Shown: positions 1 to 44,452, numbered from the stretch's first letter. The stretch: DNA of 64,000 nucleotides from Dehalococcoidia bacterium (GCA_965247895.1 OZ252046.1:951140-1015139), one strand, 5' to 3'. The notes: generated by a model not told the origin, from the letters alone. Numbers and translations are program-made.

Positions 1-3000
1 TCACGATGATGGTGTCGCTGAGTGTCCCTGGGTCGGTGGCGGTGACGGTGACGGTGTGCGAGGGCACCGTCTCGTAGTCGAACATGGGGTTGGCGGCCAC
101 CCGTATCTGGCCGGTTGCGCTGTCCACCGTGAACTTGTCGGAGCCCGTCAGCGTGTAGCTCAGATTCCCTGCGTCCTCGGCGTCGTCGGCCACCACCCGC
201 TCCCCGACGGTGGCAGTGGCCCCTGCGTCCTCGGGCACGGAGCGCGTCGTGTTCGCAGCGGGGAACTCCGGGGCGGTGTTCACGGGCGGCTTGGCCTGGA
301 CACGGTTTCGCGAGACCGCGGAGATACTTATGTCCGTGTCCGGGCTGTATCCGTCCCTATACGTGGCGGTGGCGCGCAGGTAGTAACCGATGTCGCCTAC
401 GACCGGCGTGTAGCTGTCAGCCGTGGCGCCGCTGATCAGCTGCCAGCCGCTCCCCCGGCTCGTCGACCGCTCCCACTTCCACGTCGTCGACTGCACGATG
501 TCGGCGTCGGTCAGTGTCGCCGTGAACGGCGCCTCCACCTGCGGCTGCGGCGAGGAGAGGCCGAGCATCGCCCGTTCGTTCACATTCGTGACATCCACCG
601 TGACCCTCGTGACCGCTGAGCCGTTCGCATCCGTGGCCGTGACCTCCACTTCGTAGCTGTCCTTGGTCTCGTAGTTGAGGGCGCTCTCCGTCCGCAGCTG
701 GCCGCTGGTGGCGACGATCGCGAACGATGAGGCGTCGGCTCCGCCGAGCGTGTACGTGGTCGAGCCGTCCGTGGCCGCGGCCGTAACCGGCGGGCCGATG
801 TTCCTGTTCCGCGACGTGTTCTCCTCGACGGTGCGCGTGGTGCGGACGGACTGGAGCGCGAAGGACAGAGTCGCGATCGGCTCCGTCGAGAATTTGCCCG
901 TTCCCCGGATGCTCGTGATGACCCCCTGCGGGTCGGTGGCCGCGTTGCCCAGGGAGAACCCCGTGCCTTCCTCCGTGCCCGCGTCCCACGGGTAGAGGTT
1001 GACGGTGTGGGAGCGCAGCCAGCGGCCGCTGCTGTTGAGCAGGGGCAGGCCGGAAACGCCCACGAACCAGTCGGGGCTGGGGGCGACCATCGTGACCAGC
1101 GTGACGCGCGGGTGGGTGGTGGCAAGCGTGGGGTTGAGGCTCTGTGTGGCCGTTACCCCGCCCGTGTCCGTGCTGCCCTGGAACAAGCTGAGCGCCGTGG
1201 CCGGGTTGGCGCCGATGGCTGTCTGCACCTCGCTCCGCAGGGTCGTGATCGTTCCGTCCTCCGCCATCGACTCGACCCCGGCGCTGGCCGTCCCGCCGCT
1301 CGCGAGGAAGCTCACGCCTGCGTTGTGGACGGCGCCGGCGAGGCGGGAGAAGTGCGCGCCGCCGGGAACGCCGTCAGGCGTGACCTTGGCGTACCACTTG
1401 CCCTCGAACTCGACGTCATAGGTCGCTGTCGATGGGAACGGCGCGACGGGATCGCTCGCCGGGGGGGTCAGCGAGGTGTCTTGCCTCGTACGGGTCACCG
1501 TCACGATGTAGGTCCTGGTGCTTCCGTTCGCGGCTGTCACCCTGATGGTGATGACGTTCTGGCCCACCGACGGGTTCACCTGGTAACCGTCGGCATTGGT
1601 GTCGGCGTCGACGCGACCTACGAGCGTAGCCACGGCACCGGCATCGTTCTCGCTCGCGGTCACCGTGATCCCCGTCACGGTGTAGCCGACGGATGCCGTG
1701 TACCAGGTGACCTCAGTGTCGAAGGAGGGGCTGAGCCTTGCCCCGCTCAGTGACAGCGCGCTCAGGGTGGCGTCCGCGGAGAGGGGGGTGCCTGTGCCCG
1801 TGTCCGACCAGTCCCCGTCGCCGGCGCTGTTGGCTGCCCGCACCTCCACGTCGTAGGAGACGCCGTTGGTCAGCCCCGCGATGGTGTATTCCAGGTCGCC
1901 CGAGGTCCAGGCGATCACTTCGTCCCAGTTGGCGTCGGCCTTGTCCGTCGCGTCGGTGCGGATTGAGTGCACGTCGTAACGGGTAATGGCGGCGCCGCCG
2001 TTGGAGGCGGGCGCGCTCCATTGCACGGCGAGCTCCCCGTCGCCGGCGGTCACGGAAGAAACCCCCGGCACTCCGGGCACCACGGGGGGCTGCATCTGCT
2101 CGGCGGCCTCGCCGATGTTGTTATAGTTTTCGGCAGAGACGCGCACACTCGAGCCGGGCGCTGTGGCAGTCGTCTGGTGGGCGAGAGTCCCCGAAACATC
2201 GGTGATCTTCGCGGAACGGGTGTCGTCGTACTCCTGGTCCGCATCCTTCCACTCCACCCGGTAGGCGGTGATGGCTTCACCCCCGTCGTAGGCCGGCTTC
2301 TCCCAGGTCACCCGGCCGTCCGCGGCCAGGGCGACCGCTGCGGGAGCCTGGGGGACGCAGCCGCCGGCTCGCCATGGATTGCGGGTGGGGGCCCTGCCGT
2401 ACAGGGCCTCCGTTGCTCGCTGCCGATCGCAGTAGGCCCCGAATGCGTTCCGCAACGCGAACGCAGCCGCGTGTTTCCATGCCCCCACGCCCTTGACATC
2501 AGTCCACACCTTTTCGAGGTCGTACTGCTTGTCGTATTTCGGATCCGTTGAGGTGTCATAGGGAACGGTGTCGTCCTCGTAGGTTGTGTCGAACCAGGCC
2601 GGCATTGTCTTGGCGAGGACGCTGTTGATCATGGTCAGTGTAGTTGCAGAGGGCGTATCTCCTGTTCTGGAACAAGGAGGGAAGTACGTCGAAAGAGAGC
2701 TTGCCACGGTGCCGCTCTCGACAGCATCGGCATAGAGCTCATGGATCTGACAGCCGGTTCCGCCCGCTACGAGGTCTGCAAAGTAGAGCCACGCGATGCC
2801 GCGACCCTCGGAGTCTCGTCCCATAAGCCGCGCTCCGGCATTGTAGACGTGGCCCAGCTCATGGAGATAGACGCCTGTGTCAGATGCGGCGTTATTACCA
2901 ATGTCAACGCGAGTGACTTCACAGGCAACCAGAGTCCCTATTCTTCTCGAACTGCAATCCAGGAAGACCCTGCTGTCGGAGACTGTTGCACCAATTGGAG

Positions 3001-3510
3001 TGTTTAAACGCCGCATGTAATCGTACAGCTCGCGCACCCATGGGTCGTCTGCTTCGTATGCGGCAACAACCCCCGTCTTCAGGAAGTGACCTCGTTGCTC
3101 ACTTTCGGACTGGGTTTTGAACCCAGGCGTACGAAGCTTGACATCGGTACCCAGGGTGACGAGGAGGGCGTAGAGCGTGTCCGCAGTCAGTCCCGTCAAG
3201 TCGAAGGTGACGGAGGTGCCGTTGGTCATCTTGCTCGTCACCAGGTCGGCGCCGTCGGGCTGGGCCCTGTACTTGAGAGCAACCGTCTGCTCCGTCGAGC
3301 CGGGATTGGCGATGGTGACTGTCACGCTCGCCGTCGTTCGTCCGGTCTCGCCGAACTCCACGCCGGTGATGTTCCCGCTTGGCGCAGCCGGCAGGTCGTA
3401 GGCATAGATCTTGACCTTCGCCTCATCGCCCACCCAGAGGGTGTTCCCGCTGGAGGTGACGCCCCACGGCGCCCCATTCTCGCGGGCCAGTTGTATCTCC
3501 GGGGGGGCTG
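1..3510 (-). CDS. C-terminal portion of giant secreted surface protein A: FN3-like modules, HEXXH Zn-metallopeptidase-like region, spondin_N-like domain, cadherin-like modules. The 3' end lies beyond the window start. Same gene as 3322..5499 after a +1 frameshift at the G7 run 3501..3507.
   Basis: Minus-strand frame with codon first bases at positions congruent to 1 mod 3 is open from 3510 to position 1. Hand translation gives ...PEIQLARENGAPWGVTSSGNTLWVGDEAKVKIYAYDL (a propeller blade)...VYLHELGHVYNAGARLMG (HEXXH)...ATYDVEFEGKWYAKVTPDGVPGGAHFSRLAGAVHNAGVSFLASGG...SPDWFVGVSGLPLLNSSGRWLRSHTVNLYPWDAGTEEG (spondin_N-like)...YETVPSHTVTVTATDPGTLSDTIIV (cadherin-like). It is absent from the ORF track because there is no stop codon inside the window. 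Confidence 0.6.
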
Positions 3511-5499
3511 CCGATCGCCGACACCGGCGGTACCCAGGGCATAGGCGAATATCCTGTCCAGGGCGTCGTCGGCGACCCACAGCGCGGACCCGTTGGACCA
3601 CATGCCCCTGGGTTGCATGTAGGAGGTGGCGAGGTCGCCCTCTTTCGTTGTGTCGCGCGCTCCGAAGGTACCGGTGCTGCCGATGTTGTAGGCGAAGACG
3701 TGCTCCCGGACGTGGCCTGCTATCCACATCGTGGTTCCGTCGGACCACACCCCCCTCGGGTGGCCATTCTCGGGCGCTATCTCGAAGCTCTTCGCGGTGT
3801 CGAGCCTTCCGAAGGGGCTGCCTGAGAGCGAATACGCGTACACCTTGTCGTCCTGCTCGTCGACTACCCACAAGGTGCCGCTGTTCACGTAGACGCCGCG
3901 TGGAGCGGCGTTCTCGCCGTCGAGCACGAAGCTCTTCGAGCTGACGAAGCCCTTGTTGCTCAGGTTGTAGGCGTCGACGCGGTCGCTGCCCCCCGTGGCC
4001 CTGTCGTACACGACCCACAGGGTGGCGCCGTCGGTCCCGATGCCGCGCATCTGCCCGATCCCGACCAGGGCAAGGTCACGCTGCGCCGGCCGCACCAGCA
4101 GCTCCGCGGTGACCTCGGTCCCGTCGGCGAAGGTGCTGTCGAGTGAGGCCTGGACCACGAGGCGCGGCGCCGATCGCGCCCCGGAGAGCGTGAAGTCGAT
4201 GGTCTGTCCGCCTGTCGCGTTGGTCGTGGACCATGCATCGGTGAAGGGCTCGCGGTAACGCAGGTACACCGTCTTGCTGGGGTTGGGGTAGCTGATGTCG
4301 GCGCGAATGGTGGCGGCGGTCTGCGTAGCGGAGACGAGGGACAGCGCGGATACGCTCGGGTCCGGCTTCGGCTGGTAGTAGGCGAAGACCTTCGATCCGC
4401 TGCGGCGGCCGTCCAGGATCCAGAGATACTCCCCGTCTCCCCACATGTCGCTGGCTCCCAGTGAGTCGACAGCATTGGCGTGAGCGGTGTTCAGCGGGAT
4501 ATTCAGGTGCGGCAGCGGGATGCCGACCCTCAGATCGAGGGCGTAGAGCATCCGGTCCCGGCCGTCGACCGCCCACATCGTCTGACCGTCGGACCAGATG
4601 CCGCTCAGGGCGTAGCTGCCGTCCTTGTGCAGGGTGATGTCCTTCGCCGTGTCGCGTCCGCCATACGGGCGTTCGTAGGCATAGGCGTCGTGCTGAGGGT
4701 AAACGACCCAGAACGTGTCGCTGTTGGCCCAGATGCCCTTCGCGTCGGAGTGGCCGCGGGCGAGCCTGAATTCCCTGCTCGATTGCCGGGAGCCGTCCGA
4801 AAGCTGGTAGGCGTAGGCTCGGAATTGGGACCGGTCCACGGCGTACAGGTAGGTCCCGTCGGACCAGAGGCCCCCTGGGCTGTGGTTGCCGAGGCCTGGG
4901 GTGATGTCTTTCGCCGTGTCGCGGTCGCCGTGCTGGGCGGCCGGTGTGCGCTTGTAGGCGAGAATCGTCGTCGAAGTGCCAAGAGTAAACCCGTCGGAGA
5001 TGACCCAGAGCGTGTTGGCGTCTCCCGCGATGCCCGTGGGAAGGTCGCTTCCGGCCAACGTGATGTCGAGATGCGCCGGCCGGTTCTGGAAGGTGCTGCT
5101 CTCGACGCCGGTCGCGAAGGTCGAGTCCGCCGACACCTCGATGTCGTAGTAGGCGTTCGCCGCCAACGCCGTGAGGCTGAAGGTCACGTCCCCCGCTTGC
5201 GACGCGTTGGCGGTCCACAACAACGCTCCCCAGTCGTCCTTGTCATGGAGAGAGAGCCGCAGATAGAACGTTCCCATCCCACTGACCGTCGCGGTGGCGG
5301 TCGCGGTGGTCCGGGCGCTGCTCGCCACTGTGCCGGCACTCACGGTGGCGGTCTGGGCGGAGACCGATGCGACACGACCACTCAGGGCTGCAAACACGAC
5401 AACAAGCAGCACAATGCCTATCAGGGTTGCGGAACGCGGCAGAGTGGCGCTCATACCCGCGCTTCGTGCCGGGAGCAGCCCACCGTGTTGCCGGAGCAC
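3322..5499 (-). CDS. N-terminal portion of giant secreted protein A: signal peptide plus at least 10 divergent WSDG-type (PD40/TolB-like) beta-propeller blades. The C-terminal ~60 aa of this ORF are out-of-frame junk after the G7 frameshift.
   Basis: 725-aa ORF in the track. N-terminus MSATLPRSATLIGIVLLVVVFAALSG...AQTA looks like a signal peptide. Repeats such as GIWSDGQTMWAVDGRDRMLYALDL, GVWSDGTTMWIAGHVREHVFAYNI and GMWSNGSALWVADDALDRIFAYAL. The Arg-rich tail ...DRQPPRRYNWPARMGRRGASPP follows the G7 run. Confidence 0.7.
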   Translation of the reverse strand: MLRQHGGLLPARSAGMSATLPRSATLIGIVLLVVVFAALSGRVASVSAQTATVSAGTVASSARTTATATATVSGMGTFYLRLSLHDKDDWGALLWTANASQAGDVTFSLTALAANAYYDIEVSADSTFATGVESSTFQNRPAHLDITLAGSDLPTGIAGDANTLWVISDGFTLGTSTTILAYKRTPAAQHGDRDTAKDITPGLGNHSPGGLWSDGTYLYAVDRSQFRAYAYQLSDGSRQSSREFRLARGHSDAKGIWANSDTFWVVYPQHDAYAYERPYGGRDTAKDITLHKDGSYALSGIWSDGQTMWAVDGRDRMLYALDLRVGIPLPHLNIPLNTAHANAVDSLGASDMWGDGEYLWILDGRRSGSKVFAYYQPKPDPSVSALSLVSATQTAATIRADISYPNPSKTVYLRYREPFTDAWSTTNATGGQTIDFTLSGARSAPRLVVQASLDSTFADGTEVTAELLVRPAQRDLALVGIGQMRGIGTDGATLWVVYDRATGGSDRVDAYNLSNKGFVSSKSFVLDGENAAPRGVYVNSGTLWVVDEQDDKVYAYSLSGSPFGRLDTAKSFEIAPENGHPRGVWSDGTTMWIAGHVREHVFAYNIGSTGTFGARDTTKEGDLATSYMQPRGMWSNGSALWVADDALDRIFAYALGTAGVGDRQPPRRYNWPARMGRRGASPPAGTPSGWAMRRRSRSMPTTCRLRQAGTSPAWSSARPDERRRA

Positions 5500-6329
5500 A
5501 TCGCCCGGCTCAGGGCAGCCTGCGCCCAGGCGCGATCCGGCGGGTGGCTAGCGAACAGCGAGCCGGCCAGGCTCGCGGCCCCTGGCACCGGAAGCCGTCC
5601 GGCGAGCACGCCACGGAGCAGCACGGCGCGGAAAGTGGAACCGGTGATCTGCGCCGAAGTCACGACGGTTCCCCCCCGCAAGAAGCGCCCCCGTGGGCGC
5701 CTAGCTAGGGCAACCTAGCACGGTCGTGTCGTTCAATCGATGCATATCCGTGATAAATACGTGAAACTTTGCTCAAACCCGTGAAGTTTTCGGTGAATCA
5801 AGTCCCATTGATGCTCACCACCAGCCTTTCACGGCACGCGCCCAGGGAACTCCAGCAGCGCATAGGCCAACCCGAAGGTGAGGGCGAGTCCTCCTCAGCC
5901 CGTCTCCGGCACGCTTGCTAGTGGCTGCTCTCCGGGCGCTCGGGTCGCGATCACAGGGGTGGTGCAGCGGCACGCGCACCGGGACGACAACGATGTCCAT
6001 GTCCGGACGCTGCACCCTGTCATCGATGTCGTGGAACGTCAGCTCGGCGCCGAATTGGGCGGCCGAGGCCCTCGCCGTGTCTTCGTGTGCCATGCAGACG
6101 GCCTTGAGCTCGTAGTCAGGGCAAAGAGGCCAGCGCTGGCACGCAGCACTCGATACGGTCACGCGGCTGGGCGCGGTGGACCCGGGGCTCGTGGCCATCG
6201 AGGCGGGCCGCATCGCCGACGGCCGCCGGGAGAGCGGCGTCGGGAATAGGACAACTTGGGCGGTTCGACCGCCCGAAGCCGAACCTGGCCGGCTACGACG
6301 CGCTGCTCGCCGCGAGCACGGGATGAGCA

Positions 6330-6664: not shown

Positions 6665-6740
6665 TGGTGCCCCCAAGGGGGTTCGAACCCCTGTTTCCAC
6701 CTTGAAAGGGTGGCGTCCTGGTCCCCTAGACGATGGGGGC
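6665..6740 (-). tRNA. tRNA-Glu (anticodon TTC)
   Basis: Reverse complement of 6665..6740 is GCCCCCATCGTCTAGGGGACCAGGACGCCACCCTTTCAAGGTGGAAACAGGGGTTCGAACCCCCTTGGGGGCACCA. 7-bp acceptor stem, anticodon loop CTTTCAA, T-loop GGTTCGAA, 3' CCA. Confidence 0.9.
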
Positions 6741-9843: not shown

Positions 9844-10771
9844 GACGGTCCTCGACGACTCGAAGGAAGATCTCCTCCAGGCTCGGCGTTGCAAACTCGT
9901 ACCGGTCAATCTTCGCGCCGCGGTCGAGCAGTGTCCGCAGCACCGCCTCCGGGGGGTGGCCGCTTGCAAGTTTGAGCACGTATCCGGAACCCTCCCGCCG
10001 GGACCCGAGCACTCCGTCAATCGCCTCCGACGCCCGGTCGCTCGCGACAAAGACCTCGCTACCAGCGAAGCGGCGCTTGATCTCGGTGAGAAGGCCTTCG
10101 AGCACGAGGCGGCCGTCGTCGACCATCAGGATGCGGTCGCACAGTTCCTCGACGTCCGTCATCTGATGGGTTGAGAACATGATGGCGACGCCTGCGGCAC
10201 GCCGCTCAGCGACGATGTCCTTCATGAGTCGCACGTTGATCGGGTCCAGCCCGCTGAACGGTTCATCGAGTACGACGAATGCGGGATCATGGATGAGCGT
10301 CGCCGCGAACTGCACGAGTTGGCCGAGTCCCCGGCTGAGTTCGCGGACCTTCTTGTCCCGGTGCTCCTCGAACCCGAGACGTTCGAGGAGTTCGTTGGCA
10401 CGGCGTAGAGCGGGTTCCCGGGAGACACCTCTGAGTTCGGCCAGATAGAGAAGGTTCGGGATGACCCGGAGATTGCGGTAGAGGCCGCGTTCTTCCGGGA
10501 GGTAGCCGATACGTTCACGGGTTTCCGGGGTAACGGCGGCACCGAATATCGCCACATCCCCAGCGTCCGGCCGGATGATGTCGAGGAGCATGCGGATGGT
10601 AGTGGTCTTGCCGGCGCCGTTCGGGCCAACCAGTCCGATGATCTCGCCGGGCCGCACGGACAGGGAGACATCCTGTACCGCTATCCGGTCGCCGAACCGC
10701 TTCCACAGGCCGGTGGCCTGGACGACGGGAGTAGTCGCCGGAGTCATTGCCATAGACCGGGATCGTAGCAC
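9836..10771 (-). CDS. ABC transporter ATP-binding protein
   Basis: Walker A GPNGAGKTT, ABC signature LSRGLGQ, Walker B VVLDEP. Confidence 0.85.
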   Translation of the reverse strand: MLRSRSMAMTPATTPVVQATGLWKRFGDRIAVQDVSLSVRPGEIIGLVGPNGAGKTTTIRMLLDIIRPDAGDVAIFGAAVTPETRERIGYLPEERGLYRNLRVIPNLLYLAELRGVSREPALRRANELLERLGFEEHRDKKVRELSRGLGQLVQFAATLIHDPAFVVLDEPFSGLDPINVRLMKDIVAERRAAGVAIMFSTHQMTDVEELCDRILMVDDGRLVLEGLLTEIKRRFAGSEVFVASDRASEAIDGVLGSRREGSGYVLKLASGHPPEAVLRTLLDRGAKIDRYEFATPSLEEIFLRVVEDRHA

Positions 10772-12187: not shown

Positions 12188-12712
12188 ATGGAGCAGGCCG
12201 TCGCCGCGACCGGATCGGACGAGGACGCCGCGCGTCCGGGCGCGATGCGCGGGCAGCTCCGGCGCTTCGCCGGCATCGCCGCGGCGGTCGTGATCCTCGA
12301 CCAGCTGACGAAGGCGCTCGTGCGCGCCTGGCTGAGCGAGGGCGAGACCTGGCCCGAGGGCTTCGATCTGATCCGCATCTCGCACGTCGAGAACTCCGGG
12401 GCCGCGTTCGGGATCCTGCAGGATGGAGGCCCGTTCCTGATCGCCAGCTCGATCCTCGGCGCCATGATCGTGCTGATCTTCCTGCGCGCAGCCCCGCCCG
12501 GCGACCGCCTCTACGAGACGGCGCTGGCGTTGGTGCTCGGCGGCGCGGTCGGCAACCTGATCGACCGGCTCTTCCGAGGCACGGTGACGGACTTTATCGA
12601 CCCCACCCACTACCCCTCCTTCAACATCGCCGACTCCTCGATCGTGGTCGGCGTGTTCGCGCTCGCCGTGATCTCCCTCTTCCGTCCCGGCAGCAAGCCG
12701 GAGAGCGCCTGA
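12188..12712 (+). CDS. lspA: Lipoprotein signal peptidase (signal peptidase II)
   Basis: Motifs VENSGAAFG, GGAVGNLIDR and FNIADS. Confidence 0.9.
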   Translation: MEQAVAATGSDEDAARPGAMRGQLRRFAGIAAAVVILDQLTKALVRAWLSEGETWPEGFDLIRISHVENSGAAFGILQDGGPFLIASSILGAMIVLIFLRAAPPGDRLYETALALVLGGAVGNLIDRLFRGTVTDFIDPTHYPSFNIADSSIVVGVFALAVISLFRPGSKPESA

Positions 12713-15223: not shown

Positions 15224-15297
15224 TGGGGACTCGTCTAATGGTAGGACAGCTGACTCTGGATCAGTAGGTCGGGGTTCGAATCCTCGGTCCCCAGCCA
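15224..15297 (+). tRNA. tRNA-Gln (anticodon CTG)
   Basis: TGGGGAC acceptor stem, anticodon loop CTCTGGA, T-loop GGTTCGAAT, discriminator G, then CCA. 74 nt. Confidence 0.85.
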
Positions 15298-15490
15298 ATA
15301 CGCCGTATACGATTTCGGGGCCGTACTGGACAAGCTGTCCATGAACGCTGTCCGGTACGGAGCGCGGGCGCAGGGGGTAGGAGCCGCCCGGACGAGCTAG
15401 AAGAGCGAGTCTCGTTCAACGAGCAGCCGCGACTGGGGAGGTCGATATGGAGAGCTTGCTTAGCTGCTGCACGACTGAGGTGCTGGCACA

Positions 15491-17122
15491 GTGAGCACAA
15501 TAGACGGCGCTATAGACCTCACTATACCTGGGCTATCTGGAAAGCCTTTGAGCATCACAATACAAACTGGTGAATCCATCTTTGTTATGGGTGCGAATGG
15601 AACAGGTAAATCAACTCTCATACATCACCTCAATAACGAGCACAACGCGCGAGCGCGATTCATACCTGCTAATCGTCAAACATGGATGGAATCTAACTCC
15701 GTTACTATGAACTCGCGCGACAAGGAACAGACAGAACGGAATATAAGACAAGGGACCACCCGTGCTGACGCCCGGTTCCGCGACAACTATTCTGGCGCGC
15801 GAGTCAGCTTGTCCATAGCGGAGCTGCTGGCAGCTGAGGCCGCGCGAGATCACGACATCGCGATTGCGATTGATCGCGGGAAGCCCAAACGTGCGCGGAA
15901 GATATCAAGGAACCGTCCGTCGCACTTGAGAACGATTTCTTCGCTCTTACAGTCATCAGGTCTTCCAATCACAATAAGCGCTCACAATGGTGAGGAACTC
16001 CGAGCCGTCAAGCACGGACAAGAGTATAGTATCGAACAACTATCGGACGGTGAGCGCAATGCCTTTTTACTTGCCGCAACCATCCTCACTACCGAACAAG
16101 GAACGCTTTTCCTGTTGGATGAGCCTGAGAGGCATCTGCATAGGTCCATTTCAGGAAGGCTGATTTCGTCGCTCATTGCGGAGCGAGCCGACTGTTCGTT
16201 TGTAATTGCCACACACGACATTACACTTCCGAGCAAGGAAGAGGATGCCAGAGTCATTCTCTTGACGGCTTGTCAATTCAGCAACGGGCAAGCTATCGGG
16301 TGGGATGCGAAGCTCCTTCCGCAGGGCGAAGCCATAGACGAGGATATCACGAGGGATATATTGAGCTCGCGCAAGAGGATTTTGTTCGTCGAAGGCGTGG
16401 ATGGTAGCCTCGATATTGAGCTCTACCGTATCGCCTTCTCCAGCGAGAACGATATTGACGTCGTGCCCAAGGGTGGGTATCCGGCAGTCGAATCTTCGGT
16501 TAGGGCGATCCGCGGGTCCGAAGCGCTCTATTGGATGGAAGCCTTCGGTATTATCGATCGGGATGGCCGCGCAGACGATGAAGTGTCAGCCTTACGCAAG
16601 ACTGGAGTGTACCCGCTGGAGGTGTACTCCGTGGAATCGATCTACTACCATCCAAAAATCCAGAGGGAGGTAGCGGAACACTTATACGAGAGCCCAGAGG
16701 ACAAGGTTACGGCAGCTCGCGCAGCCGCCATCGAAGAGATAGCCAAGCAAAAGGAAGGCTTGGCCACGCGGGCTCTTGAGAGGATGGTGCGCCGAGCTAT
16801 CCTCGAACGAATCCCTGGACGAGAGGCTATCTCGGCAGAACTGTCTGTCCGAATTGAGATCGACATGACGGACCTACCACAAGATCCGCGTGCAGATCTG
16901 GAGCGAGCGATCGACGACAACGATCTCGAGTACATCATGAAGCACTACCCGATTAAGCCGGGCAACGTCCGGGGAGTGATCGCGCGACAACTCGGGTTCA
17001 CGAACCGGACGGCATACGAGCGGAATGTCCGCAAGGTGCTCCGTCACAGGCCTCAAGCGTTGGAGTTCGTCAGGTCCTTGCTTGGAGGCCTCCCTTCGGA
17101 CCTTACCGCTTCAGGGTCATAG
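15491..17122 (+). CDS. Fused ABC-type ATPase + TOPRIM-type nuclease domain protein (OLD / PARIS-AriAB-like), on a low-GC islet
   Basis: Walker A GANGTGKST, ABC signature LSDGERNAF, Walker B LFLLDEPERHLH, H-loop ATHD. The C-terminal half has TOPRIM-like motifs ILFVEGVDG (conserved Glu) and GIIDRDGR (DxD). GC is about 45% against about 70% for the flanks. GTG start. Confidence 0.8.
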   Translation: MSTIDGAIDLTIPGLSGKPLSITIQTGESIFVMGANGTGKSTLIHHLNNEHNARARFIPANRQTWMESNSVTMNSRDKEQTERNIRQGTTRADARFRDNYSGARVSLSIAELLAAEAARDHDIAIAIDRGKPKRARKISRNRPSHLRTISSLLQSSGLPITISAHNGEELRAVKHGQEYSIEQLSDGERNAFLLAATILTTEQGTLFLLDEPERHLHRSISGRLISSLIAERADCSFVIATHDITLPSKEEDARVILLTACQFSNGQAIGWDAKLLPQGEAIDEDITRDILSSRKRILFVEGVDGSLDIELYRIAFSSENDIDVVPKGGYPAVESSVRAIRGSEALYWMEAFGIIDRDGRADDEVSALRKTGVYPLEVYSVESIYYHPKIQREVAEHLYESPEDKVTAARAAAIEEIAKQKEGLATRALERMVRRAILERIPGREAISAELSVRIEIDMTDLPQDPRADLERAIDDNDLEYIMKHYPIKPGNVRGVIARQLGFTNRTAYERNVRKVLRHRPQALEFVRSLLGGLPSDLTASGS

Positions 17123-31183: not shown

Positions 31184-31192
31184 AATGTAGCC

Positions 31193-32494
31193 ATGATTCG
31201 GCGCATCGCGATTCAAGGCTACAAGTCACTGCAGGATGTCAACCTGCGCTTGGATCCGCTGACCATCGTCATCGGGCCGAACGCCGCCGGCAAAAGCAAT
31301 CTCCTCGACGCGATCGGCCTGCTCAGCCGCACGGTAGAAGGCGACCTTCAATCCGCGTTCATGGAACACCGTGGCGAGCCTCTGCGCTCGTTCACGTTGG
31401 ATGAGACAGGCATCGAAGGCCTCATGACGCGCGCGAGTGCATCGTTCCGCCTGGACGTTGACGTCGAGCTGTCGAAGGCCACGGTGAATCAGGTGAACCG
31501 GACCATTAACGAGGCGCGCGAGGGCTACGAGCCCTCGCGCGCCCTCGTCCGCGAGACGCTCCTGCGCTACTCACTGGACATGCAGATCCGAACCGACTCA
31601 GGAGTCCTGCAAGTGATCGACGAGTCGCTGCACGCGCTGAATGTGGACCTAGGTGAGAAGCAGTCGCGTCGTCCGTTCCTATCAGCCGAGAACAAGTCCG
31701 GCGGCGTGAAGCGGCTTTCGCTGCGCCTCGAGCGCCAGAGCCACCCCTTCGAGCACGACCTCGGGATGGATCGAACTGTCGTGTCGCTCCCGCACTACGC
31801 GCCGCATCACCCCCACCTGGTGGCGCTCCGTCATGAACTAGCCTCGTGGCGAACCTACTATCTCGAGCCCGAGGCCATGCGCCAAGACTCTTCGCTGCGG
31901 GAGGTTAGGCGCTTACCTCACGATGGATCAGACCTCGCGGCGTTCTACAACACCATGGAGAAGGAGCACTCGCGCGTGTTCGACGCGATGAACCGCGCCC
32001 TGCGCGGCGTGCTGCCGGGGATCGAACGTGTCGGCGTTTCGACCACGGAGTCAGGGCGCCTCCGCCTCTATGTCATCGAACGGGGAGTACGTTTCGAGGC
32101 GAGCGCACTCTCGGAGGGCACGCTCCGTATCCTGGCCCTGATCGGCATCACCAACTCTCCGGAGCCCGCAGCAGTCATTGGCTACGAAGAGCCGGAGAAT
32201 GGTGTACACCCTGCCCGCCTCTCGTGGATCGCCTCGTTGTTCGAGGAAGCGTCTCGTGACGACACAACCCAGTTCATAATCAACACCCATTCGGCACAGT
32301 TTCCCGCGATGTTCTCTGGAGACGAGTCGCTCACCCTTCGTTGCTACAAGGAGAACGGTGTCACGAATTTCGAGGAAATCGACCGCGCACTCCCGTTGCT
32401 TGAGGACCTCGAGATCTCGGCCGCCCTCGACGAGAATCAGCCAACGCCGGTTTCGCCGCTCTCTGCGCGCATCGAGCGGGGCGACTTCCTCTAG
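31193..32494 (+). CDS. AAA_21/AAA_15-type ABC ATPase (OLD / AriA / GajA / RloA-like), first gene of a two-gene cassette
   Basis: Walker A GPNAAGKSN (residues ~28-36). After a ~250-aa insertion: signature-like LSEGTLRILAL, Walker B/D-loop VIGYEEPENGVHP, H-loop NTHS. Lower GC (~58-60%). Confidence 0.8.
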   Translation: MIRRIAIQGYKSLQDVNLRLDPLTIVIGPNAAGKSNLLDAIGLLSRTVEGDLQSAFMEHRGEPLRSFTLDETGIEGLMTRASASFRLDVDVELSKATVNQVNRTINEAREGYEPSRALVRETLLRYSLDMQIRTDSGVLQVIDESLHALNVDLGEKQSRRPFLSAENKSGGVKRLSLRLERQSHPFEHDLGMDRTVVSLPHYAPHHPHLVALRHELASWRTYYLEPEAMRQDSSLREVRRLPHDGSDLAAFYNTMEKEHSRVFDAMNRALRGVLPGIERVGVSTTESGRLRLYVIERGVRFEASALSEGTLRILALIGITNSPEPAAVIGYEEPENGVHPARLSWIASLFEEASRDDTTQFIINTHSAQFPAMFSGDESLTLRCYKENGVTNFEEIDRALPLLEDLEISAALDENQPTPVSPLSARIERGDFL

Positions 32495-33088
32495 GTGCGA
32501 GTTCTGTACGTCCTTGAAGACAACGCGCATGCGCAGTTCGTCCCACCACTCTTTCGGAGGATTGCGCGAGACGAAGTTGTAGATCTCGCCGAGCAGGAAC
32601 TAACACCGATGCGAGGCGACGGCCGTACGATTAGCGGCCTGCGGAGACTGCTCGCCGACATCAGGACTGGCAGCCCCACGCGGCCCGATCTGATCGTCGT
32701 TGGCATTGACGCGGACTGCAGCTCGCGAGGTGAGCGCGATCGGCAGGTCCACCGCGCATGCGAACTCGAAGGTTACGAGGGCGACGTCATCGTCGCCGAG
32801 CCGGACCCGCACATCGAGATTTGGTACCTCGCCGATCCTGTGCTCCTGCAGCAGTTACTCCAAACGCCAAGTCTCTCTGCTATACCGGACATTCGTTGCA
32901 AGAAGGACGAGTTCAAGAAGGAACTGCGCTCAATCGCGCTGTCGAGCGGGGCGCCCGCACCCCTAGGCGGAGTAGAGTACGGGCCGGAGATCGCGGAAGG
33001 CATGAACCTTTACCGGGCCGGCCGCAGTGTCGCGTCGCTCGGCCGGTTCGTCGACGCGGCGCGCGCACGCCTTCAAGCGCACGTGTAG
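32495..33088 (+). CDS. Small (197 aa) TOPRIM-like protein (E...DxD). Partner of the upstream ATPase.
   Basis: GTG start directly after the ATPase TAG stop. Conserved Glu in LYVLEDN (E8) and IVVGIDADCSS (D72, D74), spaced like a TOPRIM core. No other recognisable domain. Confidence 0.6.
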   Translation: MRVLYVLEDNAHAQFVPPLFRRIARDEVVDLAEQELTPMRGDGRTISGLRRLLADIRTGSPTRPDLIVVGIDADCSSRGERDRQVHRACELEGYEGDVIVAEPDPHIEIWYLADPVLLQQLLQTPSLSAIPDIRCKKDEFKKELRSIALSSGAPAPLGGVEYGPEIAEGMNLYRAGRSVASLGRFVDAARARLQAHV

Positions 33089-33108
33089 GGGCAGGCAGCG
33101 GAGGCGAG

Positions 33109-35413: not shown

Positions 35414-35489
35414 TCCCCGATAGCTCAATTGGTAGAGCGAGCGGCTGTTAACCGCTAGGTTCGTGGTTCGAGTCCACGTCGGGGAGCCA
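35414..35489 (+). tRNA. tRNA-Asn (anticodon GTT)
   Basis: TCCCCGA acceptor stem, anticodon loop CTGTTAA, T-loop GGTTCGAGT, then CCA. 76 nt. Followed by an AT-rich stretch gattatgtctcttatatattg. Confidence 0.85.
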
Positions 35490-35655: not shown

Positions 35656-37826
35656 TCAGGAGCCTCCCGTGCCCGCACTCGGGAGCTCGGGCGCCTTGAG
35701 CGCGCACTCCTCGCGCAACCAGGACGTGACGCCATCGGCCGACACCAGGAGCCAGCCCACGCAGCGCCCAACTCCCTGACCGAGTACCTCGACCTCCGTG
35801 CCGTCCAGCCAGCCGCCGACGAGTCGTGCACCATCGGCGCAGTCGATACGGTGCGCGACACCCCTGCCGCCCGTATTCCCGATGATCCTCAGAGCCTCCG
35901 GCCCCACTGCCGCAGGCGCCGCGAATTCGACCAGATACGTCCCCCGCACCCACGAGCTGGCGCCGTCCGCCTGGACCCACAGCCAGCCCACGCAGCGCCC
36001 AACCCCGTGCGCGAGCGCCTCGACCTGCGTGTCGTCCAGCCAGCCGCCGCCGTCCGAGCGTCGCGCATCATCGGCACAGTCGTCGCGCTGCGAGACGCCG
36101 TCGCCGCCGGTATTCCCAATCAGCCACCAGATCGTCGGGGCCAGCGCGGGAACACCGCCCGAGTCGACGACCTGCTCGGCGCGCGCCCACGAGCTGACGG
36201 CGTCCGCCCGCACCCAGAGCCAGCCCGTGCAGCGCCCAACCCCCTGAGCGAGAATCTCGACCTCCGTGCCGTCCGGCCAGACGCCGCCGTCCGAGCCTCG
36301 CGCATCCTCGGCACAGTCGCTGCGGTGCGAGACGCCCTCGCCGCCCGTGTTGCCGATCAGCCTGCGTGGCCCCGGATCCGGCGGCTCGACCGGCTCCGCT
36401 GTCTCGACCGGCTCCGCCGGCTCGTCCGGCTCCAGCGTCCCGTCCGGCTCCGCTGTCTCGACCGGCTCCGCTGTCTCGACCGGCTCCGCTGTCTCGACCG
36501 GCTCCGCTGGCTCGTCGGGCTCCGCTGGCTCGCCGGGCTCCGCTGGCTCGTCGGGCTCCGCTGGCTCGTCGGGCTCCGCTGTCTCGACCGGCTCCGCTGT
36601 CTCGACCGGCTCCGCTGTCTCGACCGGCTCCGCTGTCGCCACCGGCTCCGCTGTCTCGACCGGCTCCGCTGTCTCGACCGGCTCCGCTGTCTCGACCGGC
36701 TCCGCTGTCTCGACCGGCTCCGCCGTCTCGACCGGCTCCGCTGCATCTTCGCGGCCTGGAGGGTGCATGATTCGCACTCGGTAGACACGCGAGCGATGAC
36801 CATCTTCGGAGGTGACGGTGACCGTGATCTCCGCGATCTCCTCCAGCGCCAGCTGATGCCCGTTCTCCGGATTCCCATCTGCGTCATCGGGAGCGATCAC
36901 CACGGTCGCTCCCGGCCGCATGGCGCGTGCATCAATGACTACGCGGCCGGTCGCGACCCCTTCGTAGCCGGTGCGGCTGCTTGTGAAGTCGCCAATCTGG
37001 ACGCCGACCAGTCTCAGCAGGGCGAGGCGGGTGTCCGCGCTCGCGCGCAGCTCGGTGGTGAAGTAGACGCGGTCGTCGGCGAGGTCGCCGACGTAGATCA
37101 GGCCTCCATCGGACCAGAGACCTCGCGTCTCTCCGTTCTCGTTGCGGACCCTGAACTCCTCGTCACGGACGCGCACGAGGTCGTCTCCCTGCAACTGATA
37201 CGCGAACAACCTCGCGCTGCCCCTCTCGGAGACCAGGATCACGTACCCATCCGACCAGAGCCCGTGCGGGTCGTTGTTGGCCGGATCGAGCGAGTAGACG
37301 CCGAGCGTTTCCCCGGTCGCAGGTCGTAGCTGAAGAGACTGTCCGTGCCGCCATCCAGCACCCACATCGTGTCGCCGTCGGACCAGATGCCTCGGGCGTG
37401 GGCGTTGCGTTCGTCGAGCCTGATGTCCCGCTCCGGAAGCGGCGTCCTGGTCTCCATGTCGTAGGCGAAGACCCGGTCCTGCCCGCTGTCGGAGACCCAG
37501 GCCGTCTCGCCGTCGGACCACAGGCCGCGCGGGGCCACGTTGCGCCTGGCGAGCTTGAAGTCGAGCTCCTCGAGGCGCTCGCGGCTCTCGATGTCGTAGG
37601 CAAAGACGCCGTCGTCGGCCCCGACTCCGTTCCAGGCTACCCACAGCGTCTCGCCGTCGGACCAGAGTCCCGTCGTGACGCCGCAGCCGGGTTGAGGAGG
37701 GTCAAGACTGCAGGTGGCTCCCGAGGCTGCCGGAACCGCGCCACCCAGATGCGCGAACAGGAGAACCAGAGCAACTATTGCCGAGCTGGCCGCAAGCCGG
37801 GCATACGTCCTCGCCTCGACCGCCAT
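35656..37826 (-). CDS. Giant secreted surface protein B: signal peptide, WSDG beta-propeller blades, 18-bp-unit acidic tandem repeat (PVETAE)n, three C-terminal SH3b-like Cys-containing domains. A single-base frameshift near 37305..37325 splits it into track ORFs 37239..37826 and 35656..37644.
   Basis: N-terminus MAVEARTYARLAASSAIVALVLLFAHLGG. Blades GLWSDGETLWVAWNG...FAYDI and GIWSDGDTMWVLDGGTDSLFSYDL. At the junction one frame reads ...DSLFSYDLRPGKR and the other ...RPATGETLGVYSLDPANNDPHGLWSDG. C-terminal repeats IGNTGG[DE]GVS[HQ]R.DC..DAR.S.GG.W.DGTEVE.L..GVGRC.GWL.V.ADG..SW.R. Confidence 0.65.
36376..36750. repeat. About 20 tandem copies of an 18-bp unit (gtctcgaccggctccgct and variants) encoding (PVETAE)n/(PDEPAE)n inside gene B
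   Basis: Read directly. Coding low-complexity repeat, not CRISPR (units are contiguous, no spacers). Confidence 0.8.
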
Positions 37827-44000: not shown

Positions 44001-44452
44001 GCTGCCGGCATCCTCCCGTTTAGCCGGGGCGGCGTCGTAGGAGTGCCACCGCCCGAATCCAGAATTATCGAAGTCACCCGCCTGGGCGAGCCCCCGGCGG
44101 TGATCCCCTCCCACGTCGATATTTCCTTGCTGGCGCTCCAGTCGAGCCGTCGCCGGACGTTGCTGGTGCCCTCGAGCGTCTCCTTCAACCCCGCCAGGAC
44201 CCTGCAATCAGCGACAAGCTCGGCGTTGTCCGCGGCATCCTCGACAATGACGCCGTCGTCGCAAGCTTCCGGATCCACCGGTGTCGCCGGCACATCCACT
44301 GCCAGGGCCGTCTGCTGCACGGCCAACATGGCGACCGCGACCGCGACGACGAGGAGCCAGCGGCTCACGAGGCGCCTCGCAGTGTGCTGTTGCCCGCGAG
44401 TGCGGGGACGCGGGCGTGGACCTGCTCCGCGTCGCGAGGGTCTGCGGCGCAC
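38007..44452 (-). CDS. Giant (~2150 aa) secreted surface protein C. N to C: signal peptide; plant-type LRR N-cap + ~8 LRRs; >=5 Ig-like 'GDTLTLTYSEALD' beta-sandwich repeats; cadherin-like modules; WSDG beta-propeller; (VVEPPIEEPP)n; 3x ~95-aa Cys-containing domain; (TPAPTA)n; (DETPAA)n; 4x SH3b-like domains. A frameshift near 42618..42628 splits it into track ORFs 42575..44452 and 38007..42596.
   Basis: LRRs: LTGLVTINLKQNQLSGPIPPELGD, LTKLMTLSLHGNRFSGPIPTEITE. N-cap CDDGVIV...ADCRVLAGLKETL...W.GIT. Junction: the 625-aa frame ends ...PITNNTDVPRRLSRPMTRQWWTAKR*. The -1 frame reads ...SLVSTNDSAVVDGETLTLTYNKALDE, matching the intact repeat junctions. Propeller blades GVWSDGETMWVSDSGQERLFAYDL and others. 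Confidence 0.65.
38505..38700. repeat. About 11 tandem copies of an 18-bp unit (cagccggggtctcatccg) encoding (DETPAA)n in gene C
   Basis: Read directly. Confidence 0.8.
39405..40160. repeat. Three near-identical ~240-bp tandem copies encoding a ~95-aa Cys-pair domain (AEPEGECLIGLTEGRFDLTIY.GGSLAELRDCMREFELMAVWDDP.GEWVPLLIGGTELVNRPFVALFPDGVP), flanked by (TPAPTA)n at 39196..39396 and a 30-bp x3.5 repeat at 40187..40300
   Basis: Read directly from the translation of the 38007..42596 ORF and the underlying DNA. Confidence 0.75.

Follow-up and report, generated by a model that had tools for sequence, protein, structure and literature searches.

The 64-kb stretch of DNA analysed here (the window) opens on the minus-strand coding sequence of a very large, predicted secreted protein whose reading frame is interrupted, which raises the question of whether this sequence is one gene and, if so, whether the interruption belongs to the organism or to its assembly. 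A previous sequence-only reading had proposed that a 725-aa ORF (3322..5499) is the first part of a single gene, here called gene A, split at a run of seven G, and the run was confirmed (G7 on the plus strand at 3501..3507, corresponding to C7 on the coding minus strand). The ORF switches frame inside CCCCCCCGG (window 3499..3507): the upstream frame runs from 5550 to a stop at 3322..3324 without interruption, and another minus-strand frame has no stop between 4078 and base 1. Insertion of one C joined the two frames into 1,833 codons reaching position 1 with 0 stops, and the fused reading (...GVGDRQPPPEIQLARENGAPWGVTSSGNTLWVGDEAKVKIYAYDL...) was identical to that proposed before. The Arg-rich tail (RRYNWPARMGRRGASPP...) that had been described after the run was verified as an out-of-frame translation, and the downstream part is indeed missing from the ORF track, where ORFs running past the window edge are not listed. 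Downstream of the break, gene A has 1,167 open codons and no second lesion.

By an independent GC3 Viterbi segmentation, the frame changes at 3489/3490. Support for the upstream frame ends with the P at 3505..3507, support for the downstream frame starts with the E at 3497..3499, and the lost base may have been anywhere within the interval given in Table 1. Orthologs carry the codons CCC GCC/CTC CGG GAG ATC (P-A/L-R-E-I) at this point, and since the window reads CCC CCC CGG-AG, the loss of a G from CGGGAG is more parsimonious than the loss of a C. The first of these repairs gives RQPPREI, as in the closest orthologs, and the second gives RQPPPEI. The earlier proposal of C8 instead of C7 was right in that one added base restores the frame; the missing base, however, may have come from the GGG of CGGGAG. 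G/C runs of at least 7 are few, four in the 64 kb and two of these in gene A, so that a break meeting one by accident is unlikely. The frame and the stop of the 725-aa ORF were also upheld, but its start is probably ATG 5454 (MSATLPRSATL...), with which the N-termini of orthologs agree, and not GTG 5499. Counted from this ATG, the window contains 1,818 codons, the first ~63% of the gene.

Table 1. Features of gene A and frameshift sites of the window (positions in nucleotides from the first base of the window).
Feature	Position	Strand	Basis
Gene A, secreted multidomain protein; 3' end past window position 1	1..5454	-	0 stops in fused reading; single-frame ortholog ORFs
Probable Sec signal peptide, MSATLPRSATLIGIVLLVVVFAALSGRVASVSA followed by Q	5356..5454	-	Read from sequence; N-termini of P0001 and P0002 conserved
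FN3-like beta-sandwich 1	5083..5352	-	AF2 model of P0001, residues 38-122, all-beta, pLDDT about 90
Beta-propeller 1, five blades, motif G-x-W-S-D-G-x-T-x-W-V...Y-A-Y	4369..5076	-	Repeats and AF2 model of P0001
FN3-like beta-sandwich 2	4090..4362	-	AF2 model of P0001, mapped
Beta-propeller 2, blades 1-4, upstream frame	3505..4083	-	Repeats and AF2 model of P0001
Interval holding the one-base loss, coding strand CCCCCCCGGAG	3497..3507	-	Frame support by residues and Viterbi switch
Arg-rich tail of the cut-short 725-codon ORF, up to stop 3322..3324	3322..3496	-	Not real protein sequence
Beta-propeller 2, blade 5, downstream frame, severed from blades 1-4 by the frameshift	3389..3499	-	Repeats and model
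FN3-like beta-sandwich 3	3107..3379	-	AF2 model of P0001, mapped
Uncharacterised ~255-residue domain; HELGH 2849..2863, invariant ELYAD 2726..2740	2342..3106	-	Homolog conservation
Two fibronectin type III domains	1799..2341	-	Pfam fn3, fused residues 1148-1234; PDB FN3/titin matches to flanks
Cadherin-like beta-sandwich PF12733	1490..1765	-	Pfam
Spondin_N PF06468	902..1426	-	Pfam, E = 1.4e-36, profile positions 1-174 of 194
Cadherin PF00028, two stretches, running off the window	1..829	-	Pfam
Second frameshift, paralogous giant gene B (start 44452, stop 38007)	42625..42628	-	Coding-strand C4; one added C gives a 2,148-codon ORF
Third frameshift, paralogous gene C (start 37826, stop 35656)	37310..37313	-	Coding-strand G4; one added base gives a 723-codon ORF
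Fourth frameshift, MMPL-family transporter gene (start 46925, stop 44659)	~46476..46499	-	One added base gives a 755-codon ORF

It is virtually certain that gene A is a single gene broken by the loss of one nucleotide at or beside the homopolymer, as had been claimed. About ten homologous loci from other sponge-symbiont assemblies cross the break site in one frame. Two of them lie in intact orthologs of 2,882 codons (L009, 68% identity over fused residues 76-1642) and 2,995 codons (L010, 49% identity over fused residues 51-1815), and L002-L008, L001 and L060 likewise read through the site. The junction was gap-free in a protein alignment of seven sequences, and a paralog located within the window aligned straight through the equivalent point. 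In an AF2 model of the ortholog P0001 (pLDDT 79.6), the break falls within a folded propeller, between blade 4 and blade 5. Across the N-terminal ~1,100 residues, the proteins of Dehalococcoidia symbionts are about 41% identical to those of Acidimicrobiia (Ca. Poriferisocius) symbionts. The species of the window was not found in the protein collection, where the best match had 62% identity, and a DNA scan of JGI metagenome contigs for the junction gave 0 matches.

As shown in Table 1, the window contains at least four frameshifts, every one of them mended by adding one base, and all four are backed by homologs or by a Pfam match across the repaired junction. At the break site of gene C, whose frameshift was picked up with heterologous queries, at least 12 homologous loci are contiguous at about 50% identity; in the MMPL gene, where no run at the break site exceeds 3, the Pfam MMPL match (profile positions 4-305) spans the repaired junction. 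The run at the break is C7 plus GG once, 4 bases twice and at most 3 once, and some 20 G/C runs of 6-7 elsewhere in the window are free of frameshifts. Each of the four affected genes has one lesion only, with no nonsense mutation and no larger deletion, and about 38 remaining genes are intact with full-length Pfam matches. The three giant propeller genes make up 14 of about 60 kb, yet they hold three of the four lesions (length-adjusted p about 0.04-0.05); counted by gene, 3/3 giant propeller genes are hit versus 1/39 others (p = 3e-4). Such clustering is also compatible with real inactivation of dispensable, fast-evolving genes. One high-quality relative, L053, carries a break of this kind, and real ones may exist in the family.

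With regard to the cause, which the earlier reading had left open between sequencing error, pseudogene and phase variation, we rank a consensus or assembly indel above a genuine recent or polymorphic frameshift, and the latter above homopolymer phase variation. The balance tilts towards an error in which the assembly consensus lost one base, an artefact that we infer and did not observe, because the same type of lesion is present in at least three further genes of the 64 kb, including an unrelated transporter. Under this explanation, the consensus would have dropped one base within CCCCCCCGG, which shifts the frame where blade 4 of the second propeller gives way to blade 5, and the organism itself would make the full-length protein. 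The density of frameshifts in the window (about 6 per 100 kb) is of similar order to that of long-read metagenome assemblies of a mock community (about 4 indels per 100 kb; PMC13087279), and HiFi assembly routinely compresses homopolymers (PMC13087279). Similar to the long-read assembly indels that truncate predicted proteins and are addressed by IDEEL-type tests, an otherwise intact ORF is split by one base at or beside a homopolymer, and multiple events, all with one sign, are found in a single stretch of assembly; unlike them, short runs are present at three of the four sites and the events are gathered in one gene family. Since three of the breaks are at short runs and ~20 longer runs are clean, a homopolymer-length error model alone appears to fit poorly, and the artefact reading would consequently need low coverage or a mixed-strain consensus. 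Related low-coverage long-read contigs are also broken, L061 (2x) twice and L001 (8x) once. GTDB representative genomes contributed 57 homologous loci with 317 kb of coding sequence, and only one such break was detected there with a test that recovers two frameshifts in this window.

A real, very recent frameshift, either a young pseudogene or a null allele segregating in the symbionts and caught in the consensus, is conceivable but doubtful. Such an event would belong to the turnover, by birth and death, of eukaryote-like surface proteins that form a large and dispensable family, and the gathering of lesions in the giant propeller genes speaks for it, as do the several loci per genome found in relatives, where single copies may be expendable. 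L001 and L060, which come from different samples, are both broken at fused residue ~853 by different indels, which suggests a real break passed down within that lineage; L053, a chromosome-level MAG, has one as well, and bacterial mutation is biased towards deletions. Against a genuine event, the unrelated MMPL transporter shares the lesion type, sign and size are identical in all four cases, no affected gene has acquired further damage, and in the homologous genes of the 57 reference loci the frequency of such breaks is about 45 times lower. In addition, a relative-rate test against two orthologs showed that window-specific substitutions in gene A are not elevated past the break (down/up ratio of 1.5 in the window versus 1.41 and 1.2; Fisher p = 0.72), a result with which a very young pseudogene is still compatible. 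The broader proposal that real one-base losses preferentially strike giant eukaryote-like surface-protein genes (3/3 versus 1/~39) is improbable. If true, the symbiont population would vary or shed host-facing adhesins through simple indels, a contingency-like or birth-and-death regime for the host-interaction genes of a non-pathogenic uncultured symbiont, and the C7 tract of gene A would be the most mutable site in this regime.

Slightly less probable still is slipped-strand phase variation, with the C7/C8 tract as an on/off contingency switch of a surface adhesin or protease. The tract has seven bases, a borderline length for slippage, where at least 7 would be needed, and is located in coding sequence for a host-facing secreted protein, the bacterium being host-associated; besides the rarity of runs this long and the presence of two in gene A, runs of at least 6 are over-represented in the first 5.7 kb (7/24, Poisson p = 0.006). 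A precedent in a high-GC genome is the glpK 7C tract of M. tuberculosis, which together with other tracts undergoes reversible frameshifts (bioRxiv 10.1101/717272; PMC10334774) and in which, as in gene A, a change of one base in a coding C/G run turns the protein off. In contrast to that system, the tract of gene A is absent from 9/9 orthologs whose codons were read (CCC GCC/CTC/ACA CGG or other non-repetitive codons), and the most parsimonious repair leaves C7 in frame, placing the change perhaps outside the tract, in the neighbouring GGG. The other C7 of gene A (1461..1467) is in frame, the scan of JGI metagenomes, with its 0 matches to the junction, showed no variation in tract length, and an incomplete propeller would be made in the OFF state. 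Moreover, the window has the same type of lesion at non-repetitive sites nearby: the three remaining frameshifts are at runs of at most 4, which slip too seldom to be useful, so that a general process already accounts for the break in gene A. We regard it as highly improbable that the frameshift is real and that full-length protein arises through slippage on the C-run, either ribosomal (-1) or transcriptional. RQPPPEI is precisely what a -1 slip on CCC CCC C would yield, and polymerase slippage on homopolymers rescues frameshifted genes in insect endosymbionts; however, the orthologs are all in frame at the break and hence have no conserved recoding site, seven C are short for transcriptional slippage, and the three other frameshifts have no slippery sequence.

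Gene A encodes a eukaryote-like multidomain protein of ~2,900 residues, probably secreted, in a sponge-associated bacterium. A probable Sec signal peptide is followed by two five-bladed propellers alternating with three FN3-like sandwiches, the HEXXH domain, two FN3 domains, a cadherin-like domain, Spondin_N and cadherins. Nine blades (5 + 4), and not ten as had been claimed, were counted before the break, and the additional blade past it turned out to be the fifth of the second propeller. The modules predicted further downstream were recovered by Pfam in the fused protein (fn3 2.8e-15, Cadherin 4.7e-15, Cadherin-like 4.2e-13, and Spondin_N as in Table 1), and HELGH was located at 2849..2863. 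To judge by its domains alone, the protein is likely to function in adhesion to, or remodelling of, the host matrix.

The domain with the HELGH motif gave no sequence match in Pfam, NCBIfam or PDB, and just 7 homologs were retrieved from a collection of 5.8e9 proteins. The HEXXH motif is kept in 7/8 homologs, P0003 carrying HELALVH instead. A gluzincin-like metalloprotease is possible: similar to gluzincins, which combine HEXXH with a downstream Glu, the domain has an invariant Glu (ELYAD) 37 residues past the second His, and a low-confidence model predicts the order beta-sheet, HEXXH helix, Glu helix. Unlike gluzincins, it matches none of the families searched and has the divergent motif in P0003. 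The AF2 model of this domain (pLDDT 49.7) was unusable.

A Foldseek search with the ortholog model gave as its top matches the ectodomains of ROS1/Sevenless and the YWTD propellers of LRP6/megalin (E down to 1e-20), which share with it the alternation of FN3 and beta-propeller modules; identity was about 10% with TM-scores of 0.2, and gene A has five blades, not six, by repeat count. This likeness would be a resemblance of architecture only. Gene A also places eukaryote-type adhesion domains (cadherin, FN3, spondin; Pfam) in a bacterial, predicted secreted protein, and sponge symbionts are enriched in eukaryote-like and adhesion proteins (cadherin, fibronectin III, repeats) that were laterally transferred (PMC8163846). 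Like those, the product is a very large, predicted secreted protein composed of cadherin, FN3 and propeller repeats; unlike them, it combines two five-bladed propellers, a HEXXH domain and Spondin_N. The arrangement of alternating propellers and FN3-like domains with an unclassified HEXXH domain and Spondin_N is, as far as we could find, undescribed. The closest relatives of the bacterium are Dehalococcoidia MAGs. The 57 homologous loci come almost solely from sponge-associated MAGs of several phyla, many with sponge-symbiont candidatus names (Poriferisocius, Poriferisodalis, Spongiisociaceae) or with isolate labels that we take to be sponge MAG series (SB06xx, IRC), and the rest are from Dehalococcoidia/Tepidiformaceae MAGs.

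The reading frames on both sides of the GGGGGGG run at 3501..3507 (plus strand) were compared in gene A, a giant secreted-protein gene encoded on the minus strand. The upstream frame is open from 5550 to a stop codon at 3322..3324 and corresponds to the listed 725-codon ORF (3322..5499), and the second frame is stop-free from 4078 to base 1. Addition of one C in the run fused both frames into 1,833 codons with 0 stops and a junction reading GVGDRQPPPEIQLARENGAPWGVTSSGNTLWVGDEAKVKIYAYDL, as the sequence-only reading had noted for a +1 shift, and the Arg-rich tail that it had taken for the degenerate end of the ORF proved to be an out-of-frame continuation. The peptide sequence 3' of the junction is exemplified by EIQLARENGAPWGVTSSGNTLWVGDEAK. 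A homology-free, window-wide Viterbi segmentation of the six frames, which rests on codon-position GC, placed the frame switch of gene A on the same strand at 3489/3490; this method was adopted because opposite-strand shadow frames made simpler frame maps (a GC3 minus GC2 sliding score and a stop-to-stop ORF filter) too noisy. From its agreement with ortholog N-termini, the start of gene A is probably ATG 5454 (MSATLPRSATL...) rather than GTG 5499. A scan for promoters and terminators 5' of gene A found none. About 220 nt 5' of the start, directly after a GC-rich hairpin (GGCGCCCACGGGGGCGC), the coding strand carries a G7 run (5671..5677), one of four G/C runs of at least 7 in the window.

In a search of a large protein collection, the homologs P0001 and P0002 read straight across the junction (...GVGGRQPAREINLVRENGAPWGI...), P0003 covered 99% of a 577-residue junction-spanning query, and the junction was gap-free in a seven-sequence protein alignment. 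A scan of GTDB species representatives yielded 57 homologous loci from Dehalococcoidia, Tepidiformaceae, Ca. Poriferisocius and Acidimicrobiia, many of them bearing sponge-symbiont candidatus names or isolate labels typical of sponge MAG series. We examined tblastn results locus by locus for single-frame alignments across the break site, numbering residues on the fused protein obtained by the one-base repair. Such alignments were found in L009 (OZ244720.1, a chromosome-level Dehalococcoidia MAG; residues 76-1642, 68% identity, inside a 2,882-codon ORF), L010 (residues 51-1815, 49% identity, inside a 2,995-codon ORF), L003-L007 (from residues 31-53 to about 1,130-1,163, about 41% identity), L002 (residues 410-1240, 41% identity) and L008 (residues 421-1155, 39% identity). 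L001 and L060 also aligned across the site with about 66% identity, both being broken at another place, and the window paralog at 38007..42596 aligned across the equivalent point. The single-frame orthologs, the gap-free alignment and the location of the break inside a propeller uphold the earlier view of one gene split by a one-base frameshift at or beside a homopolymer. Two naturally separate genes are untenable, since a propeller is interrupted by the break and no signal peptide precedes the downstream part.

The limits of the lesion are 3497..3507. Orthologs read CGG CAG CCC GCC CGG GAG ATC (RQPAREI) at this site, with CCC CTC CGG GAG in L009, and the window reads CGG CAG CCC CCC CGG-AG ATA. 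A G added back (CGG GAG, for RQPPREI) preserves the Arg that is present in each of the eight relatives with more than 40% identity among those read at codon level, and costs one substitution fewer than the C8 repair (RQPPPEI). Of the former proposal of C8 instead of C7, the loss of one base stood; these codons do not tie that loss to the C-run, a lost G of CGGGAG being more parsimonious. A second C7 of gene A (1461..1467) is in frame. The suggested comparison of the homopolymer among relatives was made with orthologs, and those whose codons were read lack the tract. The species of the window is absent from the protein collection, where the best match is 62% identical, and from JGI contigs. No public assembly was on record with exactly this 725-aa ORF, and the junction DNA pattern, with 6-10 G allowed, had 0 matches in JGI metagenome contigs.

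Modules of gene A and other frameshifted genes, in window coordinates
Feature	Position	Strand	Lesion	Repair
Gene A, probable signal peptide	5356..5454	minus		
Gene A, FN3-like 1	5083..5352	minus		
Gene A, propeller 1	4369..5076	minus		
Gene A, FN3-like 2	4090..4362	minus		
Gene A, propeller 2	3389..4083	minus		
Gene A, FN3-like 3	3107..3379	minus		
Gene A, ~255-residue domain with HELGH and invariant ELYAD	2342..3106	minus		
Gene A, two FN3	1799..2341	minus		
Gene A, cadherin-like	1490..1765	minus		
Gene A, Spondin_N	902..1426	minus		
Gene A, cadherins	829 down to base 1 and beyond	minus		
Gene B	38007..44452	minus	one-base loss at C4, 42625..42628, GTGCCCCGTCG	+1 C, 2,148 codons
Gene C	35656..37826	minus	one-base loss at G4, 37310..37313, CCGGGGAAA	+1 base, 723 codons
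MMPL-family transporter gene	44659..46925	minus	one-base loss at ~46476..46499, runs of 3 or less	+1 base, 755 codons

Gene A encodes a secreted protein some 2,900 residues long, of which 1,818 residues fall within the window. Pfam matches on the fused protein (Spond_N, E = 1.4e-36; fn3; Cadherin-like; Cadherin) bear out the spondin, FN3-like and cadherin-like modules previously read downstream of the break. The AlphaFold model of P0001 (pLDDT 79.6) consists of FN3-like, five-bladed propeller, FN3-like, five-bladed propeller and FN3-like domains followed by helices, and places the junction (P0001 residues ~645-650) between blades 4 and 5 of the second propeller, so that the truncated ORF would end in an incomplete propeller. 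The ten blades formerly counted before the break are nine (5 + 4), and the blade after it is the tenth. ROS1/Sevenless and LRP6/megalin ectodomains were the top structural matches of the FN3/propeller array, a similarity confined to architecture. The N-terminal ~1,100 residues (two propellers, FN3-like domains and the HEXXH domain) share ~41% identity between two phyla, as represented by Ca. Poriferisocius/Acidimicrobiia (L004-L007) and Dehalococcoidia (L009, L010, L003, L008) symbionts. Such sharing points to possible lateral transfer among members of the sponge microbiome, and agrees with the report that cadherin and FN3 genes are enriched and laterally transferred in sponge symbionts (PMC8163846). 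Judging by its domains, gene A most likely serves in host-matrix adhesion or processing, and its product is part of the eukaryote-like adhesion repertoire, a class already known, that is thought to mediate the sponge-symbiont association.

Gene A also carries a rare, unclassified HEXXH domain of ~255 residues (HEXXH...ELYAD) with conserved Cys residues. Its profile, compared with Pfam, NCBIfam and PDB sequences, retrieved flanking FN3 domains or nothing, and only 7 homologs, all from ENA metagenome assemblies and one of them missing HEXXH, were present in a collection of 5.8e9 proteins. Motifs and predicted helix order are similar to those of gluzincins, in a poor structure prediction (pLDDT 49.7) that was left out of fold searches. 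The domain is possibly a new zincin-like family confined to sponge symbionts, with a hypothetical protease activity.

The Viterbi segmentation also revealed three further same-strand frame switches off gene boundaries, each mended by +1 base, in the paralogous giant propeller genes B and C and in the MMPL gene; all four lesions of the window have one sign, 1 base missing. An L049 alignment crosses the gene B junction, at least 12 homologous loci (the 12 best listed, about 50% identity) read through the gene C site, whose frameshift was also found with heterologous queries, and a Pfam MMPL match (profile positions 4-305) spans the repaired MMPL junction. Gene B, a secreted paralog, contains LRR, Ig-like repeats, cadherins, a five-bladed propeller, three ~93-residue repeats, SH3-like repeats, and Pro/Thr and ETPAAD low-complexity arrays; gene C, a smaller paralog, contains a signal peptide, a five-bladed propeller, a cadherin-like domain, an AEPVET x20 array and SH3-like repeats. 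About 38 other window genes, including malic enzyme, ABC transporter, LspA, RluD-like, GluRS, several SDRs, a pyrimidine operon and CarB, gave full-length Pfam domain matches and no sign of disruption.

Breaks were also detected in relatives of gene A. In L001 and L060, from two ENA samples, different indels break the frame at one position (fused residue ~853), directly 5' of the HEXXH domain: L001 (~12480..12500, AGGGGGCAAAAG) needs +1 and L060 (~12495..12510, AGGGAGGGCAAGAG) needs -1. Either consensus errors coincide here or the lineage has inherited a real break. L061 (labelled 2x) has two breaks, one near the ~853 spot and one at residue ~1061. L053 (OZ220739.1, a chromosome-level Tepidiformaceae MAG) switches frame inside a blade of a propeller gene at ~10380..10400 (SLFSYDLETGELLGKYA / LDSGNRDPRGIWSDG), which is the sole such event in 317 kb of homologous coding sequence from the 57 reference loci; by the same tblastn criterion, heterologous queries found 2 frameshifts in 14 kb of the window, a ~45-fold higher rate (Poisson p about 1e-3).

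The cause of the frameshifts is most probably mundane, and we infer, with a slight leaning, that an assembly or consensus artefact broke gene A. Four lesions are of the same kind and sign, one of them in the unrelated, housekeeping-type MMPL gene, each affected gene has one lesion with no nonsense mutation or larger deletion, 1,167 codons are open 3' of the gene A break, and low-coverage relatives are broken too (L061, 2x, twice; L001, 8x, and L060 once each), all of which counted for an artefact, as did the ~45-fold higher rate than in the reference loci. A relative-rate test that took L010 as outgroup counted 14 substitutions unique to the window lineage among 581 sites upstream of the break and 35 among 966 sites downstream of it, a down/up ratio of 1.5 compared with 1.41 in L009 and 1.2 in L001, both intact here (Fisher p = 0.72), that is, no excess. 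Frameshift density in the window (about 6 per 100 kb) is similar in magnitude to that reported for long-read metagenome assemblies, where a mock community gave about 4 indels per 100 kb; the same paper names homopolymer compression as a standard step of HiFi assembly (PMC13087279). The relatives stem from long-read sponge metagenome projects, and tandem arrays (190-360 nt, 92-97% identity), examined as a clue to the sequencing platform, pointed to none in particular. An artefact accounts less well for the fact that three of the four lesions lie in the three giant propeller genes (length-adjusted p = 0.036-0.047), and three of four are at runs of 4 or less while about 20 other G/C runs of 6-7 have no frameshift, which fits a pure homopolymer-length error model poorly. 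Such a pattern would result from low local coverage, or from a consensus of mixed strains in genes that are hypervariable and internally repetitive.

Inactivation of dispensable paralogs by genuine recent or polymorphic frameshifts would explain it too, and real breaks probably exist in the family, since L001 and L060 are broken at one spot by different indels; we consider a genuine frameshift in gene A rather unlikely. Phase variation at the C7 tract appears improbable: the tract is of barely sufficient length, M. tuberculosis offers a precedent with its 7C tracts (bioRxiv 10.1101/717272; PMC10334774) and G/C runs of at least 6 are mildly over-represented in the first 5.7 kb (7/24, p = 0.006), but orthologs whose codons were read lack the tract, the altered base may be outside it, and the neighbouring frameshifts are at non-slipping sites. 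Recoding is very hard to credit, a conserved recoding site having been rejected because orthologs are in frame. Beside the favoured artefact, it is a residual possibility that indels silence the giant host-facing genes of the symbiont in preference to others.

For annotation, gene A is to be treated as one ~2,900-residue gene or flagged as frameshifted, rather than as a 725-residue protein plus an unannotated stretch; genes B and C and the MMPL gene call for corresponding treatment. With four one-base losses in 64 kb, the assembly consensus warrants a read-level check before claims on pseudogenes or gene content. If the frameshifts are real and concentrated in the propeller-gene family, they would bear on symbiont variation of the host-facing surface.

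At their ends, genes B and C both carry a ~60-residue module in repeated form (IGNTGGDGVSHR...C...GW.DGTEVEVL...G.C.GWL.V...SWV; 38007..38900 and 35656..36400, respectively). A third secreted protein (49975..52083) has a C-terminal bacterial SH3 domain (51850..52083; Pfam SH3_3), which the module may resemble, and the module is possibly a shared cell-surface anchor. tRNA-Glu (6665..6740, minus) lies ~1.2 kb 5' of gene A and tRNA-Asn (35414..35489, plus) adjoins the gene C 3' end; such tRNA-adjacent giant-gene clusters may be islands. tRNA-Gln (15224..15297) precedes a stretch of lower GC (0.63-0.66) encoding a 543-residue ATPase-DUF4435 protein that matches fused PARIS AriAB over nearly its full length (PADLOC E = 2.4e-52), and the region 15224..17119 resembles a small, tRNA-associated defence island. 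A 436-residue AAA_15/AAA_21 ATPase (31184..32491, plus), accompanied by a weakly coding stretch (32026..33104), matches the candidate defence protein HEC-01A (PADLOC E = 4.9e-61).
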